A DNA stretch of 64,000 nt from the sequence record PZ386948.1; one strand, given 5' to 3'. The notes under the pieces were generated by a model. That model was not told where the DNA came from and searched no databases. It saw only the letters and a list, made by a program, of their open reading frames with translations. Position 1 is the stretch's first letter. Each line of letters opens with the position of its first letter. The position numbers and the translations under genes are program-made. Below, in pieces: positions 8,468-40,703 of the stretch. The DNA is from a phage.

Positions 8468-10281
8468 TGGTGTTTAACCCTATGCATGATTTCTTTATTT
8501 TTACCGAGATTAAATCCGCGTTCGTTCGGATTTCCCAAATAACCACATGTTCTTCTTATTGTGTTCATCTTTTTAGGATCAGTTTCTCCACAAATAGAAC
8601 AAACAAATCCGTTTTCAGTAGGAGTCATTTCATGGGTACTTCCACATGTAAAACATTTATCTACTGGCATATTAACACCAAAATAATCTAAATGTTGTGC
8701 AGCATAATCCCATACGGCCTCAAGACCCTTTAAGTTATTTTTCATATCAGGAAGTTCAACATAAGAAATGTGACCACCTGTCGCAATGAAATGATATGGC
8801 GCTTCACGAGAAATCTTTTCAAACGGAGTAATATTTTCTTCTACTGAAACGTGGAAACTGTTAGTGTACCAGCCTTTATCGGTAACATCTTTTACACTTC
8901 CATATTTTTCTGTATCAAGTTTACAGAAGCGATAACAAAGGTTTTCAGCAGGAGTCGAATATAAACTAAAAGCAAATCCAGTTCTTTCAGTCCACTGTTT
9001 AAGATGAGCATTCATTTTAGTTAAAATTTCTTGTCCAATATCACGACCGACAAGAATATTCAATTCGTGAATACCAATGTATCCTAGGGACACTGAACTT
9101 CTACCGTTTTTAAATAACTCAATTATGTCGTCATCAGGTTTAAGACGAACCCCGAATGCACCTTCTTGGTAAAGAATAGGAGCAACAGTAGCTTTAACTC
9201 CTTTTAAGGAACTAATTCTACACATCAATGCTTCAAAACATAAATCCATTCGTTCATTGAACAATTCAACAAATTTCTGTTCATTGAATTGTGTTCCAAT
9301 ATAAGAATCTAACGCGATGCGAGGAAGATTCAATGTTACAACACCAAGATTATTACGTCCATCAAGAATTTCATTGCCAGTCGAATCTTTCCATACGCTC
9401 AAGAAACTACGGCATCCCATCGGAGAAACAGGAACAGATGAACCAGTGATAGCTTTATTGTTCTTAGCCGAAATGATGTCAGGATACATTCTTTTGCTTG
9501 CGCACTCTAAAGCAAGCTGCTTAATATCATAGTTCGGGTCGTCTTTATAAAGATTAACACCTTCTTCAACGAACATAACAAGCTTAGGGAAAATAGGAGT
9601 TATCCCATCACGACCAAGACCTTTAATACGATTTTTCAGAATTGCTTTCTGAATCATTCGTTCAGTCCAGTCAGTTCCCGTACCAAATGTAATTGTTACA
9701 AAAGGCGTTTGTCCGTTTGAACTAAAGAGAGTATTTACTTCATATTCATAAGCTTGGAATGCATCGTATACGTCTTTTTCTGTTTTAGATTGAGCATAAT
9801 TTAACGCATCAGCGATTTGCCATTTTTCTGCATCCTCAATATGTTTTGCATAGGTGCGTTTAACATAAGGAGAAAGTACTTTATCTACATTAGCAAAAGT
9901 CGTTCCGCCGTATTGATGGGAAGCAACCTGTGCAGTAATTTGTGCCATAATTGCAGTAGCAACACCGATTGATTTAGGAGTTTCAATCTGTGCATTACCA
10001 AGCTTAAATCCATTCTCAAGCATTCCTTTTAAATCTACTAAACAACAATTAGTAAATGGAAGAGCAGGGGAATAATCAATATCGTGGAAATGAATAATTC
10101 CGCTTTCATGCGCTTTCATAATAAAAGACGGGACCATATTTTTGGCAATGTGTTTAGACACAATACCAGCCATAAGGTCCCGTTGAGTTGGAAAAACACG
10201 AGAATCTTTATTAGCATTCTCGTTTAAAAGGTCTTTATTAGTTTTATGAATCAATCCTTCAATTTCTTTTTCAATTGTCAT
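8464..10281 (-). CDS. nrdD: Anaerobic ribonucleoside-triphosphate reductase, uninterrupted
   Basis: 605 aa; C-terminal glycyl-radical motif RRTCGYLG and Zn-ribbon cysteines; continuous ORF with no intron. Confidence 0.95.
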   Translation of the reverse strand: MTIEKEIEGLIHKTNKDLLNENANKDSRVFPTQRDLMAGIVSKHIAKNMVPSFIMKAHESGIIHFHDIDYSPALPFTNCCLVDLKGMLENGFKLGNAQIETPKSIGVATAIMAQITAQVASHQYGGTTFANVDKVLSPYVKRTYAKHIEDAEKWQIADALNYAQSKTEKDVYDAFQAYEYEVNTLFSSNGQTPFVTITFGTGTDWTERMIQKAILKNRIKGLGRDGITPIFPKLVMFVEEGVNLYKDDPNYDIKQLALECASKRMYPDIISAKNNKAITGSSVPVSPMGCRSFLSVWKDSTGNEILDGRNNLGVVTLNLPRIALDSYIGTQFNEQKFVELFNERMDLCFEALMCRISSLKGVKATVAPILYQEGAFGVRLKPDDDIIELFKNGRSSVSLGYIGIHELNILVGRDIGQEILTKMNAHLKQWTERTGFAFSLYSTPAENLCYRFCKLDTEKYGSVKDVTDKGWYTNSFHVSVEENITPFEKISREAPYHFIATGGHISYVELPDMKNNLKGLEAVWDYAAQHLDYFGVNMPVDKCFTCGSTHEMTPTENGFVCSICGETDPKKMNTIRRTCGYLGNPNERGFNLGKNKEIMHRVKHQ

Positions 10282-34941: not shown

Positions 34942-35235
34942 TTGCGGCAACCTTGTCGGGGTTCCACCTGCTAAGGCAAGTGTTTGTACGAAACGCCGGG
35001 ATTCGAACCCGGTTATTAAGCAGTTGACGCTACTCAATATTTTTAAAAGGCCATATCTCGACCATATCCGAACGTTCCGTCAAAAACGCTACTCGGCTTA
35101 CGGCAAAGATATTTCCTCGAATCGATAATTCGGTGCGCCGTTTCTGCTGTGATGTAAGAGGGCATCAATAAACGCAAAGATTATTAACGCAATTCCTTAC
35201 TCAGGGAACATCAGTCCGACGACTTACCGGTAGCG
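34942..35235 (-). ncRNA. Structured GC-rich non-coding region, candidate stable small RNAs (T4 rnaC/rnaD-like position)
   Basis: No ORF; tRNA-like T-arm CCGGGTTCGAATCCCGG on the minus strand; sits between tRNA-Arg and the terminator as species 1/2 RNAs do in T4; boundaries approximate. Confidence 0.35.
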
Positions 35236-35245
35236 ACCCGGTTTC

Positions 35246-35596
35246 TTAATATTCTTTTAAAGCATCAATCTGTTTACGGCGTTCACGCCATAAATCAATT
35301 GCTTCATACGCGGATTCAACATTTCGAATTGGACGGCATTTATATAAAGATTTGTGATTTTGATATTGCGTAGATAACGGAATTTTATCTAAAAGGTCTT
35401 TACGTTCAAAGTATTCGTAACCATCTAAGCCAAATGAACGATTTTTGAGAAATTGCCAATGACCAAATTCGTTTTGAATATAAATATAATCCGCATGTTG
35501 ATAAAGTAAATTAATTTCACGAAATGAGATATGTTTTTCATATTCATTGAAGTAAAATGTTAAATCATGAACTACTAAATAAACATTACCTTTCAT
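35246..35596 (-). CDS. Hypothetical protein
   Basis: 116 aa with GAGG RBS, immediately downstream of tRNA-Arg. Confidence 0.5.
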   Translation of the reverse strand: MKGNVYLVVHDLTFYFNEYEKHISFREINLLYQHADYIYIQNEFGHWQFLKNRSFGLDGYEYFERKDLLDKIPLSTQYQNHKSLYKCRPIRNVESAYEAIDLWRERRKQIDALKEY

Positions 35597-35614
35597 ATTT
35601 TCCTCACTTATAAT

Positions 35615-35690
35615 TGGTCGAGGCAGTAGGGATCGAACCTACGACCTAGGACTTAGAAGGTCCTTGCTCTTCCTTCTGAGCTATGCCCCG
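35615..35690 (-). tRNA. tRNA-Arg (anticodon UCU)
   Basis: Manual cloverleaf: acceptor CGGGGCA/TGCCTCG, anticodon loop CTTCTAA, T-arm GTAGG-TTCGATC-CCTAC, 3' ACCA. Confidence 0.8.
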
Positions 35691-35694
35691 TAAT

Positions 35695-35781
35695 TGGGGT
35701 GACCGATGGGAGTCGAACCACCCGAGTCGCAATGACAATGGATTTACAGTCCACACCGCTACCTCTACGGGATAACTCCCC
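35695..35781 (-). tRNA. tRNA-Tyr(GUA)-like class II element, probably degenerate
   Basis: Canonical anticodon arm GTGGA-CTGTAAA-TCCAT, long variable arm, TTCGACT T-loop and 3' CCA, but acceptor and T stems pair poorly. Confidence 0.4.
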
Positions 35782-35794
35782 TTAATTCTTAATT

Positions 35795-35869
35795 TGGTGG
35801 CCCTGGGTGGAATTGAACCACCATCTGGCGATTATGAGTCGCTTGCTTGAACCTTCCAGCTACAGGGCC
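35795..35869 (-). tRNA. tRNA-Ile/Met (anticodon CAU)
   Basis: Acceptor GGCCCTG/CAGGGCC, anticodon loop CTCATAA, T-arm GGTGG-TTCAATT-CCACC, 3' ACCA. Confidence 0.75.
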
Positions 35870-35870
35870 T

Positions 35871-35946
35871 TGGTGCTGATTGACGGAATCGAACCGCCGA
35901 CCTTCTCATTACAAGTGAGTTGCTCTACCTACTGAGCTAAATCAGC
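35871..35946 (-). tRNA. tRNA-Thr (anticodon UGU)
   Basis: Acceptor GCTGATT/AATCAGC, anticodon loop CTTGTAA, T-loop GGTTCGATTCC, 3' ACCA. Confidence 0.8.
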
Positions 35947-35951
35947 AAAAC

Positions 35952-36041
35952 TGGCGGAGGCGATAGGATTTGAACCTATGAGTCGCCGGAGCGACTGCCG
36001 GTTTTCAAGACCGGTGCATTAAACCACTCTGCCACGCCTCC
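35952..36041 (-). tRNA. tRNA-Ser (anticodon UGA), class II
   Basis: 90 nt; acceptor GGAGGCG/CGCCTCC, anticodon loop CTTGAAA, long variable arm, T-loop GGTTCAAATCC, 3' GCCA. Confidence 0.8.
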
Positions 36042-36047
36042 AAATAT

Positions 36048-36698
36048 TTATATATTGTTAATTTGATTTAGAATTCTTTTTGCTTGAGTATGACTTACGC
36101 CAATATGCTTAGCATATTTAGACAATTCGCCACGTTTAGAAAAATCATATAATTTAGAAATTTCTATTCTTCTTTTTCTTTCATCCGCAGAAACTTTTGC
36201 TTCGTTTGCTTTTGCTATTTTACGTTTAGCTTCTTGAGAATGAGTTTTACCAGCAAAGCCATTCTTCATTAATCCATTTGAAGACCATCCTTTTAATTTT
36301 CCGTTAGAATGTGCCTTTTTAACACCCAATGAAATTAATTCGCGTTGCTGATCTGTCATAGGATAATTATTTATATGATCCCATCCACCTTCACCTCCAA
36401 GTTTTAAATTATACACATCTGGTCTATTTAAAAACTCTTCTGTGACAATATTTTTCTCGGCTTCAAGCATAGATTCTTTATCGTCAAAATACTCTAATAT
36501 TTCTTTAGAAAAATTTTCTATACCATATTTATCTTGGGCTCTTTTTAATAATTTACCAGAACCCATATATCCATCATCTAAATTTTCGGTAGAATGCACA
36601 CCAATATAAATTTTATTATTAATTTTATTTGTTATTTTATAAAGATAAAAATGCATATCAGTCCCTAATAAAGAACTGAGCGTCTCACGACGAGTCAT
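36048..36698 (-). CDS. segB: GIY-YIG homing endonuclease (SegB-like, within the tRNA cluster)
   Basis: 216 aa; N-terminal GIY-YIG module (YLYKITNKINNKIYIGVHST...GYMGSGKLLKRA); lies between tRNA genes as segB does in T4. Confidence 0.75.
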   Translation of the reverse strand: MTRRETLSSLLGTDMHFYLYKITNKINNKIYIGVHSTENLDDGYMGSGKLLKRAQDKYGIENFSKEILEYFDDKESMLEAEKNIVTEEFLNRPDVYNLKLGGEGGWDHINNYPMTDQQRELISLGVKKAHSNGKLKGWSSNGLMKNGFAGKTHSQEAKRKIAKANEAKVSADERKRRIEISKLYDFSKRGELSKYAKHIGVSHTQAKRILNQINNI

Positions 36699-36702
36699 AA
36701 AT

Positions 36703-36776
<74 letters not shown>

Positions 36777-36781
36777 AAATT

Positions 36782-36868
36782 TGGTGCGAGAAGTGGGACT
36801 CGAACCCACAAGGAAATCATTCCGCAGCATTTTAAGTGCTGTGCCTTTACCAATTTGACCATTCTCGC
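36782..36868 (-). tRNA. tRNA-Leu (anticodon UAA), class II
   Basis: 87 nt; acceptor GCGAGAA/TTCTCGC, anticodon stem-loop CAGCA-CTTAAAA-TGCTG, long variable arm, T-loop GGGTTCGAGTCCC, 3' ACCA. Confidence 0.8.
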
Positions 36869-36874
36869 GCTATA

Positions 36875-37507
36875 TTATTTATTACGTGAAAAAGACTGTT
36901 CTATCAATTCTGGACACTTTCGTTCTATCCATTTTCTAGCTTTTTGTGGGCTTATACCTATTATTTTAGCAGCTTTACTAACCCATCCAAATTTAGAATA
37001 ATCGATTTTAACTAATTCTTCGTAAATTTCATCAGTTAAAATCTTTTCATTAATATTTACCAGTAAATGATATAATTTATTATCATTAGCAATTTTAATG
37101 AATCTTTTATAGTTTCCGCCTTTACTTAAACCTAATGAAGTAATTGCAGATGATATAGTAGCCGAATTTAATAGTGCGTTTAAAATTTCTTCATCACTAA
37201 CATTATAACGCTTTTTATTATTTTTAATATTTTTACCAGCAAAAGTATCAGTTTGCGAATGGCAGTTTGGACATAATAATCTTAAATTTGATTTAAGATG
37301 ATTTTTGTTATTTCCATCAATATGGTCTAATTGCAGAACAATATGCTTATTTTGCCATTTTGAAATTTTACAAATTGCACACTCATATGGAAAAATATTT
37401 TCTTTTATTATTTTGTCTTTCAGCTTTCCTGTACTAAAATTTGGATGTTTTCCTTCAAAAATTTCAGCTAATTTAGTATCCATAATATGATTCCCAATTA
37501 TTAACAA
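36875..37507 (-). CDS. HNH homing endonuclease
   Basis: 210 aa; LQLDHIDGNNKNH...LRLLCPNCHSQTD (HNH with Zn-binding Cys); stop abuts tRNA-Leu. Confidence 0.75.
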   Translation of the reverse strand: MLIIGNHIMDTKLAEIFEGKHPNFSTGKLKDKIIKENIFPYECAICKISKWQNKHIVLQLDHIDGNNKNHLKSNLRLLCPNCHSQTDTFAGKNIKNNKKRYNVSDEEILNALLNSATISSAITSLGLSKGGNYKRFIKIANDNKLYHLLVNINEKILTDEIYEELVKIDYSKFGWVSKAAKIIGISPQKARKWIERKCPELIEQSFSRNK

Positions 37508-37582
37508 AGGCTCTCTAACAAGAACCCTTGATGATAGAGGGTATTAATCAGTGCGGTATGAGTTAATAATAACAAATAATTC

Positions 37583-38098
37583 TTAAAGCAAATTAAACAT
37601 TTTAACGGTCGGCAAAACAATTTCTTTTTCTATATAAGAGTATTTAACACTCTCAACTACACGCAAAAAATCATAATCATAATACTCAGAAGCATTACCT
37701 AAAATATTAATAAGTCCTTCAAGCACTTTATTACCATTCACAAAGAATAAGTCAAATACGCGTTCTTCGTCTTCTTCGGATTTATTACCAAGGTCAACTT
37801 CTATATCAAAGACCTTTTTAATGAATTCTGGATAAAGTTGTTCTGAGAACAGTCCTTCAACCAAGTATTCATAAATAAAAAGCGATTGCTCGCTGAACAA
37901 GCCATTACCACAATAACGTTCAGCTTTAGTACTAGAATGTCTACTTTTAAACTTCTTTAAAAGATATTGAAATTGTAAGATTTCATGCTCTTCTACGCCA
38001 AACAGTGTTTTAGTTTTATAGTTGTCACCATCATTTTCCCAGGTAGTGACATCAATTACGTAACCCTGTGGAATTGTAGTACCTAAACAAATATTCAT
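37583..38098 (-). CDS. Hypothetical protein
   Basis: 171-aa ORF. Confidence 0.5.
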   Translation of the reverse strand: MNICLGTTIPQGYVIDVTTWENDGDNYKTKTLFGVEEHEILQFQYLLKKFKSRHSSTKAERYCGNGLFSEQSLFIYEYLVEGLFSEQLYPEFIKKVFDIEVDLGNKSEEDEERVFDLFFVNGNKVLEGLINILGNASEYYDYDFLRVVESVKYSYIEKEIVLPTVKMFNLL

Positions 38099-38388
38099 TT
38101 GCTCACCATATTAATGTAAGTATATTCAATACATTCAAGACCCAAAGGATTCTTGAAAATATCATATTCAAGAGGACCTTTTTCTGTTTCAATAAAGAAA
38201 TCAAAATTTACTGTATTAAATTTACGGTCTTCCTTCACTAATTTAACCTGAGAAGATGAACGGTCAATGTAAACCTTTTCAACTTCAAAACATGTTAAAA
38301 CGCCATAATCATCAATCAAGGCTTTAGCCGCGTCTTGATCATATTTATATCCATTTTCAATTGACGATACTTTAGCATAAAGAATCAT
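38095..38388 (-). CDS. Hypothetical protein
   Basis: 97-aa ORF. Confidence 0.5.
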   Translation of the reverse strand: MILYAKVSSIENGYKYDQDAAKALIDDYGVLTCFEVEKVYIDRSSSQVKLVKEDRKFNTVNFDFFIETEKGPLEYDIFKNPLGLECIEYTYINMVSK

Positions 38389-38390
38389 TA

Positions 38391-38771
38391 TCAGCCTTCA
38401 TCAACAATAGTATGAGTGTGGGCATTTACAATTTGCCACCAATCAAAGCGATTAGAACCACACATCGGTTTGTTTTCATTTTCTTTGATAATATCACGAA
38501 GTTCATCTTCGGTAGCGGCTTTCGCGATTAAATCAGCATATCCACCGCGAGGATAATAATTATCACCTGCAAAAAGTAAAAAGTTCGGTTTAATATTATT
38601 GAACTCTTCAAGAGTAATAACTTTTCCTGTCGGTTGAACAATCTCTACATATTTATATCCTAATTTTTGAGCAGCATCTACTGCTTCAAGCAAAGTATCA
38701 TGAGCCCATCCAATTTGACAACCTGGCTTTTCAGATGGATTAGCCTGATAATCCGCGTACACTTTATACAT
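38391..38771 (-). CDS. Hypothetical protein
   Basis: ATG at 38771 (MYKVYADYQ...); track start is further upstream. Confidence 0.5.
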   Translation of the reverse strand: MYKVYADYQANPSEKPGCQIGWAHDTLLEAVDAAQKLGYKYVEIVQPTGKVITLEEFNNIKPNFLLFAGDNYYPRGGYADLIAKAATEDELRDIIKENENKPMCGSNRFDWWQIVNAHTHTIVDEG

Positions 38772-38772
38772 T

Positions 38773-38958
38773 CTATTCACCTTTAGAAATTTTATCCATA
38801 ACGATAGCAATTAAACCAATTAAAAATGCTACTACAAGTGAAAAAACATTTTCTGCTGTAGTTAATAATCCGCATATAAATCCAACAAACATTGAAAAAC
38901 TAAAAGCAGAAGCAGAAATTGCAATAGCAACATTTCGAATTAATTCACAACGTTTCAT
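38773..38958 (-). CDS. Small membrane protein (two TM helices)
   Basis: ATG at 38958 (MKRCELIRNVAIAISASAFSFSMFVGFICGLL...); track extension is promoter sequence. Confidence 0.45.
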   Translation of the reverse strand: MKRCELIRNVAIAISASAFSFSMFVGFICGLLTTAENVFSLVVAFLIGLIAIVMDKISKGE

Positions 38959-38984
38959 TTTATTCTCCTCAGTAGCTGATAGGG

Positions 38985-39018
38985 TAATAGTATCACTACT
39001 AAAACCCAATGTAAACAA
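38985..39018 (-). promoter_or_regulatory. Early-promoter repeat (IP-array type)
   Basis: GTTTAC (39011-39016), 18-bp spacer, TACTAT; shares about 50 bp with copies at 39279, 39645 and 39975. Confidence 0.55.
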
Positions 39019-39019
39019 T

Positions 39020-39244
39020 TTATTCAACGCCAGCGGCTTTCAAAAGTTTCTTAAGATTGGCAACACCTTGAGCAGAAAATGTGACCTTGCCACCTTTTTC
39101 ACTGATAGAACCAACCAATTTAGCAAGTTTATCATTAGGAATTTTTTTAAAATCAGCCAATGTTCCATCAAAGGTTTTTGAAACAAAAGGCAGTTCGTCT
39201 TCGCGTCTTTTAGCTTCTACAATAAATTCTTGATATGTTTTCAT
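39020..39244 (-). CDS. Internal-protein-like protein (capsid-targeting sequence MKTYQEF)
   Basis: ATG at 39244 with RBS; N-terminus MKTYQEFIVEAKR resembles the T4 IP targeting sequence. Confidence 0.6.
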   Translation of the reverse strand: MKTYQEFIVEAKRREDELPFVSKTFDGTLADFKKIPNDKLAKLVGSISEKGGKVTFSAQGVANLKKLLKAAGVE

Positions 39245-39278
39245 TTTAGTTTCCATTTGAGTGTTTGTTTTGATAGGG

Positions 39279-39312
39279 TAATAGTATCACTACTAAAACC
39301 CAATGTAAACAA
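39279..39312 (-). promoter_or_regulatory. Early-promoter repeat (IP-array type)
   Basis: GTTTAC (39305-39310), 18-bp spacer, TACTAT (39281-39286). Confidence 0.55.
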
Positions 39313-39328
39313 CTTTGTGAAAAATTTA

Positions 39329-39616
39329 TTACAAAAGATTTTTAGCAATAATCTTGAGATGTGCCGCAGAAATGTGTTTAGCTTTAAACAACGCAGTTTC
39401 TTCAGCAGGAGAGATAACGATTGTAGCACCATCCTTTTTAGCAGACCACCCATCGCCTAGGTAAACAGTACCTTTGATTTCTTCGCCATCAACCAGACTA
39501 ATCATTGGTTTACCTTCTCGTCCTTTATTTGCTTTAATAACTTCAGAAGTAAGAGTAGCTTCGGTAATAGTAGAAACCGGGGTAGTTGTAGAAGTAAATT
39601 CTTTGAAAGTTTTCAT
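39329..39616 (-). CDS. ipI: Internal protein I-like
   Basis: 95 aa; N-terminal MKTFKEF targeting sequence with a likely ITE|A cleavage site; position next to 57B as ipI in T4. Confidence 0.65.
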   Translation of the reverse strand: MKTFKEFTSTTTPVSTITEATLTSEVIKANKGREGKPMISLVDGEEIKGTVYLGDGWSAKKDGATIVISPAEETALFKAKHISAAHLKIIAKNLL

Positions 39617-39644
39617 TTTATTTTCCTAATTAATTTTGATAGGG

Positions 39645-39678
39645 TAATAGTATCACAACTAAAACCCTATGTAAACAA
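39645..39678 (-). promoter_or_regulatory. Early-promoter repeat (IP-array type)
   Basis: GTTTAC (39671-39676), TACTAT (39647-39652), flanked by inverted repeat ataggg/ccctat. Confidence 0.55.
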
Positions 39679-39688
39679 CTTTGTGAAA

Positions 39689-39946
39689 TTATTTTAAATC
39701 TTCTAATCGTTTCTTCATCTTAGAACCGTTCTTAGCGATTTCGCCTGCATCAGAGCATAATGCTAAAAGCGCTTTAACTTTAGTTTGGTCTCCTTTAAAA
39801 GATGAAGGATCAACAGCAGCAGCAAGTTCTTTAATACGAGAGAAAAGACGCTCAGCTTCAGCTAAAGCCATTCCAAGCTTTACTTCCATACCGCGGGAAG
39901 ATTCAGTAATAGTAGTTTTTGTAGCAAACTCTTTGAAAGTTTTCAT
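39689..39946 (-). CDS. Internal-protein-like protein (MKTFKEF)
   Basis: 85 aa; first ~7 codons and upstream leader near-identical to the ipI-like gene. Confidence 0.6.
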   Translation of the reverse strand: MKTFKEFATKTTITESSRGMEVKLGMALAEAERLFSRIKELAAAVDPSSFKGDQTKVKALLALCSDAGEIAKNGSKMKKRLEDLK

Positions 39947-39974
39947 TTTATTTTCCTAATTAATTTTGATGAGG

Positions 39975-40008
39975 TAATAGTATCACTACCTCATCAGTAT
40001 GTAAACAA
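39975..40008 (-). promoter_or_regulatory. Early-promoter repeat (IP-array type)
   Basis: GTTTAC (40001-40006), TACTAT (39977-39982), flanked by perfect 9-bp inverted repeat gatgaggta/tacctcatc. Confidence 0.55.
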
Positions 40009-40018
40009 CTTTGTGAAA

Positions 40019-40703
<685 letters not shown>

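Follow-up and report, generated by a model that had tools for sequence, protein, structure and literature searches.

A gene for an HNH endonuclease has displaced the tRNA-Gln gene at the upstream edge of the tRNA array of a T4-group phage. An earlier sequence-only reading had named the gene as a candidate for this role, and the replacement is seen directly when genomes with and without the gene are aligned. The gene is real and well defined, and its sequence and pattern of variation suggest that it encodes a homing endonuclease that is probably active. We regard it as fairly likely that the enzyme is a free-standing HNH homing endonuclease resembling F-TflIV of phage T5, with a target that overlaps tRNA-Gln or the junction between tRNA-Gln and tRNA-Leu.

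Exchange of tRNA-Gln for the HNH gene

The analyzed window is a stretch of 64,000 nt of phage DNA (PZ386948.1). Its positions 35000-39000 are 100% identical to Shigella phage CM8 (NC_054939 / MK962750), a Tequatrovirus of the T4 group, in whose record the gene is already labeled 'HNH endonuclease' (YP_010075939). ARAGORN identified six same-strand tRNA genes, in the transcription order Leu(UAA), Gly, Ser, Thr, Met(CAU), and Arg. An open reading frame was found on the minus strand at 36875-37507, with the stop codon TAA at 36875-36877. As proposed, it ends 6 nt from tRNA-Leu: the spacer TATAGC (36869-36874, minus strand), which represents the 3′ junction of the replacement, separates the stop codon from tRNA-Leu(UAA), located directly downstream at 36782-36868 (minus strand) according to both ARAGORN and the alignment.

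The extent given earlier for the gene (36875-37507) was correct for the reading frame, but not for the start codon TTG at 37507. The true start is the ATG at 37483, because the PHROG profile, the RefSeq annotation, and the homologs P0002-P0004 all begin there; the match to PHROG 14736 starts at residue 9 of the mechanically called frame. Thus, the gene occupies 36875-37483 (minus strand) and encodes 202 aa. The first eight codons of the mechanical frame (37484-37507, minus strand) are intergenic sequence that is also present in HNH-less phages. This spurious 5′ extension comprises the end of the intergenic region, a remnant of tRNA-Gln, and a 6-nt leader, CATATT.

In T4, where a tRNA-Gln gene had been expected at the array's upstream edge, it was confirmed to be there. 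Both T4 and AR1 carry tRNA-Gln directly upstream of tRNA-Leu and lack the HNH gene, whereas CM8 and ACG-C40 carry the HNH gene upstream of tRNA-Leu and lack tRNA-Gln. The four-way alignment revealed that these genomes have in common about 107 nt of upstream intergenic sequence (37497-37603, minus strand) as well as the whole of tRNA-Leu. In the HNH genomes, the common upstream region is followed by TGGGAAT (37490-37496, minus strand), i.e. nucleotides 1-7 of tRNA-Gln, which form the 5′ strand of its acceptor stem, and then by CATATT, the reading frame, and TAATAT. Downstream, identity restarts 1-3 nt ahead of tRNA-Leu, and the AGC end of the spacer (1-3 nt) equals the final two bases of T4 tRNA-Gln plus the 1-nt spacer between Gln and Leu. 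In terms of size, approximately 65 nt of tRNA-Gln body were exchanged for an HNH cassette of approximately 620 nt. Since the 7-mer TGGGAAT persists in the HNH genomes, tRNA-Gln was present first; the reverse direction, i.e. insertion of tRNA-Gln into an HNH site, is ruled out by the exactness of this 7-nt remnant. Possibly, the remnant has acquired a new role: its GGGA, at Shine-Dalgarno distance about 9-12 nt ahead of the ATG, may have become the ribosome-binding site of the HNH gene.

The upstream intergenic region, common to HNH-plus and HNH-minus phages, is probably the promoter region for the HNH gene and the tRNA array. It contains an element like a T4 middle promoter (TGCTTTA at 37584-37590, a 12-nt spacer, and TATTAT at 37566-37571, minus strand) and a hairpin (37524-37542, minus strand). 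The reading as a middle promoter rests on the match to the published MotA-box consensus and on a promoter annotated at the homologous place in phage Lutter; a sigma-70 promoter scan of the upstream region did not flag the element.

A phage collection was searched with a chimeric query that combined the CM8 junction-HNH-junction segment with both types of tRNA-Gln body. By this query, the HNH allele, with junctions identical to those of CM8, was found in 64 records. The empty allele (intergenic region, tRNA-Gln, and tRNA-Leu) was intact in 448 records of the collection; both numbers include RefSeq/GenBank duplicates and therefore do not represent independent genomes. The HNH share amounts to about 12.5%, or about one in eight records. 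Within the genus, the combination that would have contradicted the proposed displacement, the HNH gene together with tRNA-Gln, did not occur in any of the 60 records listed of the 64. All 60 have a single matching place, so that tRNA-Gln is absent record-wide. Taken together with the junction alignment, this demonstrates that the HNH allele displaced tRNA-Gln. The record BYEP02, which matched with two pieces at two places and was therefore considered as a carrier of both genes, lacks tRNA-Gln; instead, 77 bp with the promoter-like element and the hairpin are duplicated in tandem just upstream of the HNH gene (L011, 1860-2010). The records T4_ev151 and T4_ev240 ('evolved T4') were considered as a gain of the HNH gene in the laboratory and dropped, as no paper on their origin was found.

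We also noted further peculiarities of the array and its surroundings. CM8 has 6 tRNA genes, compared with 10 in AR1, KIT03, RB18, and ACG-C40. Between tRNA-Arg and tRNA-Met(CAU), CM8 shows a gap of 104 nt (35691-35794), at which these four phages carry tRNA-His, tRNA-Asn, and tRNA-Tyr. The tRNA-Arg gene is unusually divergent (minimum 75% identity). A second homing-endonuclease gene of the array, encoding a GIY-YIG SegB-like protein, is located at 36048-36656 (minus strand; 36048-36698 by another delimitation), where it replaces tRNA-Pro between tRNA-Gly and tRNA-Ser; segB of T4 sits elsewhere. The N-terminal ~117 aa of the CM8 protein are 83% identical to T4 SegB and its C-terminal half is unrelated, so the gene looks like the product of a swap of the DNA-binding domain combined with a new insertion site. 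Outside the array, collinearity of the window with NC_054939 extends to about 40000, and window position 40200 corresponds to locus position 9175, not 8201. Compared with the window at about 39330-40300, NC_054939 (L001, 7330-9277) has a 974-bp tandem duplication (IpI, Ip5, and a truncated 57B), which is absent from the window. At 39216-40034, a 123-nt direct repeat occurs three times (identity 61-100%, spacings of 366 and 330 nt), and its copies coincide with the 5′ ends of three successive genes, namely two genes for small internal proteins starting with MKTFKEF and 57B.

The HNH protein and its relation to known systems

The identification as an HNH protein is not due to chance, since the PHROG family phrog_14736 ('HNH endonuclease') matches across the entire length, end to end, with E = 6e-124. 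The complete HNH motif with paired cysteines that had been read from the sequence is present (CPNCHSQTD), and an alignment of 18 homologs completed the zinc-bound DH...N...H set. In this alignment, C35, C38, H54, N66, C71, P72, N73, C74, and H75 are invariant (202-aa numbering) and D53 is nearly so. The protein thereby displays the core features of the HNH / His-Me finger fold (group 1, PF01844-like), i.e. C35-x2-C38, D53-H54, N66, and C71-P-N-C74-H75. The Pfam HNH match scored 17.3, below the gathering score of 21.4, and structure searches returned weak matches to HNH and helix-turn-helix (HTH) domains. The AlphaFold model (pLDDT 86, pTM 0.42) has a small beta-beta-alpha core (strands 51-54 and 67-70, then a helix at 72-75 in the AF2 model), followed by two three-helix bundles. 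The predicted layout thus consists of an N-terminal helical module, the HNH core, and two HTH-like three-helix modules (approximately aa 97-134 and 151-189).

The further claim that the C-terminal region binds DNA is weakly suggested by these bundles, by sub-threshold Pfam HTH matches, and by local similarity to the SegB-like neighbor. In particular, aa 161-184 of the HNH protein and aa 185-208 of the SegB-like protein are identical at 12 of 24 residues (E = 2e-4), and the C-terminal ~90-110 aa of both proteins match phrog_16521. Although their nuclease folds are unrelated, the two proteins of this array may have a DNA-binding module in common.

The nearest characterized relative of the protein is F-TflIV of phage T5 and its nearest functional analogue is SegB of T4. 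The homology to T5 hegA/F-TflIV (34.7% identity over aa 16-184, E = 5e-15) covers the nuclease and the downstream domains, and members of this family reside in tRNA arrays in CM8, in T5, and in 74 of 80 relatives from IMG/VR. In T5, hegA/F-TflIV directly follows tRNA-Ile in the tRNA region; it differs from the CM8 gene in the phage family that hosts it (Demerecviridae), in its tRNA neighbors, and in the length of its product (227 aa vs. 202 aa). F-Tfl enzymes reportedly nick their substrates. The activity of F-TflIV, an HNH endonuclease from the T5 tRNA region, has been assayed (Akulenko et al. 2004, cited in PMC2330249 and PMC5714182).

SegB of T4 has its preferred site within the T2L gene for tRNA-Asn, which T4 lacks, and secures near-100% inheritance of its own gene; the site contains the T-loop motif GGTTCRANTCC, and homing strips the rival of tRNA genes (PMC2330249). 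The CM8 gene resembles segB as a free-standing nuclease gene in the tRNA array of a T-even phage, with the same logic and the same locus, and its product shares the C-terminal HTH-like stretch with the SegB-like protein of CM8. Nevertheless, SegB has a GIY-YIG fold, to which the HNH fold is unrelated, and the position within the array differs. Moreover, SegB introduces double-strand breaks with 2-nt 3′ overhangs, whereas phage HNH homing enzymes often nick. Searches of the HNH protein against Pfam and PHROG for a GIY-YIG match returned HNH families only. Having no GIY-YIG domain, the protein does not belong to the SegB type, although it may work like SegB.

According to the T4 literature, mob genes are generally present in Tequatrovirus genomes. 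MobA-E of T4 are likewise free-standing HNH homing endonucleases of T-even phages and their genes are distributed sporadically, but none of these genes is located in the tRNA array. MobE acts on nrdB, and MobE-type enzymes promote homing of themselves and of neighboring DNA (PMC2790892); the Mob HNH enzymes of T4 have been described as nickases (PMC13096335). Membership in the Mob family was rejected by an indirect test, as tblastn with the HNH protein (E ≤ 1e-5) hit 239 records only (80 from Escherichia phages), a number far below the several hundred records of Tequatrovirus in the collection. In mycobacteriophages, HNH genes embedded in tRNA clusters have been proposed to generate diversity of the tRNA repertoire (PMC6409571). 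That statement is made at the level of gene content, unlike the junction-level case of CM8, and the searched literature held neither a junction-level one-for-one replacement of a tRNA in mycobacteriophages nor a link to the CM8 HNH family. No paper on a CM8-type HNH gene or on the tRNA-Gln swap was found, which is weak evidence given that few subscription journals were covered.

Proposed target and mobility of the HNH gene

We propose that in an ancestral Tequatrovirus the array began with tRNA-Gln, whose body was then replaced by a cassette consisting of the reading frame and ~12 flanking nucleotides. During co-infection with an HNH-less relative, the enzyme would bind DNA by its C-terminal HTH modules and nick or cut the rival's DNA at a target that overlaps tRNA-Gln or the tRNA-Gln/tRNA-Leu junction. 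Recombinational repair would then proceed through homology in the ~107-nt upstream intergenic region and in tRNA-Leu, copying the HNH gene in and deleting tRNA-Gln. The HNH-bearing genome would itself be immune because the target sequence is gone. Transcription would probably start from the array's own upstream promoter, and the HNH mRNA would be freed from the tRNA precursor via RNase P processing at tRNA-Leu. We place the target at tRNA-Gln or at the Gln/Leu junction because plus and minus genomes show just one consistent difference by which self could be told from non-self, the body of tRNA-Gln; T4 SegB, with its site in tRNA-Asn, offers a precedent. Cleavage and homing are activities that we infer from such comparisons of sequences.

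Homologs in other genera have also taken the place of tRNA genes. A large protein database contained homologs with 68% (P0002) and 58% (P0003 and P0004) identity, all of them in T4-like contigs and at the syntenic place, in the order gp2, gp3, gp1, 57A, 57B, trna.4-.2, HNH, and the tRNA array. Compared with the Marfavirus Klebsiella phage PhiKpNIH-6, the 68% homolog, on a Marfavirus-like contig, lies 14 nt after an intact tRNA-Gln and replaces an 83-nt tRNA-Asn gene together with the short spacer before it. The two 58% homologs, on Roskildevirus-like contigs, replace tRNA-Gln and ~100 nt of tRNA-like sequence compared with Erwinia phage Cronus. That the closest homolog outside the genus coexists with an adjacent tRNA-Gln is a point against the proposed model. 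The Marfavirus- and Roskildevirus-like loci (L005-L007) as well as those of distant full-length relatives (L025, L027, and L028) are all situated inside tRNA arrays.

Several details of these loci deserve mention. The tRNA-Gln beside the Marfavirus-like HNH gene (L005, 3911-3986) has a G-to-A exchange in the T-loop (GGTTCAAGTCC) as its sole difference from PhiKpNIH-6, and no exact match to this allele was found across phage records and isolates. It was considered as an immunity mutation; a single SNP in a single contig is not evidence for that. The 9 nt following this tRNA-Gln (CCAATTAAA) resemble the sequence after tRNA-Gln in Cronus (CCAATGATTAAA), a likeness that hints at transfer between genera via tRNA-Gln homology. 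In Cronus itself (L012, 1520-1619), the ~100 nt after tRNA-Gln, for which ARAGORN made no tRNA call, hold a T-loop-like GGTTCGACCCC, and the region is possibly a decayed tRNA. The 19 nt from position 1620 of this locus equal the final codons and the stop of the L006 HNH reading frame, so that either this frame may read into flanking DNA or Cronus may retain a scrap of a former HNH gene.

A scan of IMG/VR with the single protein returned no close relative; with an alignment-based scan, 80 relatives were gathered. At least one tRNA within 1.5 kb was present for 74 of the 80, and 51 had a same-strand tRNA no more than 100 nt from the reading frame. In 28 of the 80, a tRNA started within 20 nt of the stop codon or overlapped it. 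Ten of these 28 tRNAs are tRNA-Leu(UAA), compared with a background of 7.8% (binomial p = 3e-5, a value that is optimistic since the loci are phylogenetically non-independent, making the enrichment a lead), and 20 belong to class II (Leu, Tyr, and Ser), compared with a background of about 25%. We also observed a short subfamily (~140-155 aa; L042, L045, L054, L056, L059, L062, L071, L083, and others), which has an extra N-terminal HTH and ends right after the HNH motif CPNCHSQT.T..GKN. Several reading frames of this subfamily overlap a class II tRNA gene (Leu or Tyr) by up to tens of nucleotides, their stop codon falling within the start of the tRNA gene.

In many distant relatives the gene directly borders the 5′ end of tRNA-Leu(UAA), so the recognition site could be anchored there rather than in tRNA-Gln. 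The element would then be of the same type, but it would recognize either the 5′ portion of the class II tRNA gene for Leu(UAA) or a stretch across the Gln/Leu boundary; the landing pad would be directly upstream of tRNA-Leu(UAA), and tRNA-Gln would have been lost only because it is 1 nt away. The same arrangement exists in CM8, 6 nt from tRNA-Leu(UAA), and the Leu-abutting proteins of IMG/VR, being 26-67% identical to each other with at least three domain layouts, do not form one recent clade. However, reading frames wedged in tight tRNA arrays necessarily abut tRNAs, none of the three closest homologs (58-68%) is followed by tRNA-Leu and all are tied to the tRNA-Gln locus, and tRNA-Leu, which does not differ between HNH-plus and HNH-minus genomes, could not by itself confer immunity. 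We therefore consider this placement of the target unlikely.

A target overlapping tRNA-Gln or the Gln/Leu junction thus remains the preferred reading, and the variation among Tequatrovirus genomes bears on whether the gene still moves. Besides the presence/absence polymorphism at one fixed locus with identical junctions, as expected for a homing endonuclease, the distribution of the gene is untied to the backbone and its divergence lies below that of the flanking genes. This was observed in a sample of 11 HNH-plus and 7 HNH-minus genomes. Mean identity was 98.8% among HNH copies, compared with 92.7-97.7% for flanking protein genes, and flank identity was equal for plus/plus, plus/minus, and minus/minus pairs. 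The backbones that carry the HNH gene differ in the presence or absence of a 171-aa upstream reading frame and in whether they contain a T4-type segB, the SegB-like gene, or neither. The HNH reading frame is intact in all 11 copies, and its variable codons comprise 16 with synonymous changes only and 5 with replacements; the codons for CPNCH vary only synonymously. The protein is under purifying selection. Furthermore, 64 records match the entire protein at 95% identity or more.

None of the SNPs in eight flank segments (~2.2 kb aligned) separated plus from minus genomes, and no co-conversion tract was visible in the natural flanks of the 18 sampled loci. The homing claim cannot rest on co-conversion for this reason. 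The pattern fits a functional gene moving between backbones, although much the same would be seen if a stable insertion were shuffled by frequent general recombination. Recombination in T4 is very frequent, and the gene could be a stable passenger, a once-mobile nuclease that no longer homes and is shuffled by general recombination, with the loss of tRNA-Gln a one-off accident. Its status as a minority allele, which is not sweeping, would agree with this. We nevertheless judge it improbable, and more so than an anchor in tRNA-Leu, in view of the purifying selection, the conservation of the entire protein across the 64 records, the low diversity compared with flanking genes, the repeated replacement of tRNAs by homologs in other genera, and the family-wide residence in tRNA arrays.

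Finally, SegB has recently been reported to drive rearrangement or amplification of the tRNA array when host defenses that target tRNAs exert pressure, and one could imagine that the HNH nuclease is likewise kept mainly for the benefit of the phage, either by excluding markers of competitors or by driving such changes of the array, with selfish homing secondary; the array of CM8 is indeed heavily remodeled (two nuclease genes, and no Gln, Pro, His, Asn, or Tyr) and the protein is under purifying selection, but this explanation, which is compatible with the homing model, appears very improbable because the HNH site shows no sign of amplification, the only duplication seen being the 77 bp of promoter region in BYEP02, and because a phage that loses a tRNA more probably suffers than gains from it.

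Consequences for phage tRNA sets

The locus provides a natural, junction-resolved example of how selfish nuclease genes remodel the tRNA sets of phages. The exchange of one tRNA gene for one nuclease gene occurred at least three times in the HNH family and once more for the SegB-like gene. Current concepts are unchanged, as the principle was set by SegB, the F-Tfl enzymes of T5, and the HNH genes of mycobacteriophage tRNA clusters.

The tRNA-Gln genes themselves are dimorphic. In HNH-less Tequatrovirus genomes, tRNA-Gln(UUG) exists as two alleles that are identical except for a fully compensated swap in the anticodon stem (TAGCA/TGCTA vs. CTGGA/TCCAG; L002, L003, and L020-L024). A similar dimorphism, centered on the anticodon stem with a few further differences, was found in Marfaviruses (TCCGG/CCGGA vs. 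CCGGA/TCCGG; L008, L111, and L112). Such variants could have arisen by escape from a nuclease that attacks either the gene or the tRNA itself. A broader scenario may be considered, in which the CM8 gene belongs to a widespread clade of HNH homing endonucleases specialized on phage tRNA arrays. Its members would recognize the DNA of tRNA genes, either tRNA-Gln or class II genes at their 5′ edge, as with tRNA-Leu(UAA); each would take the place of a single tRNA gene as it spreads, and the clade would be a main driver of turnover of the tRNA repertoire in phages. The dimorphism of tRNA-Gln could then reflect escape at the target site. We offer this scenario tentatively and with more doubt than confidence.

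The HNH enzyme would be a simple candidate for a sequence-specific nickase or cutter of modified T-even DNA. Phage tRNAs counter host defenses that cut tRNAs, and therefore gain and loss of tRNA genes driven by nucleases could alter host range. The loss of tRNA-Gln in about one in eight Tequatrovirus records may matter for therapeutic phages.
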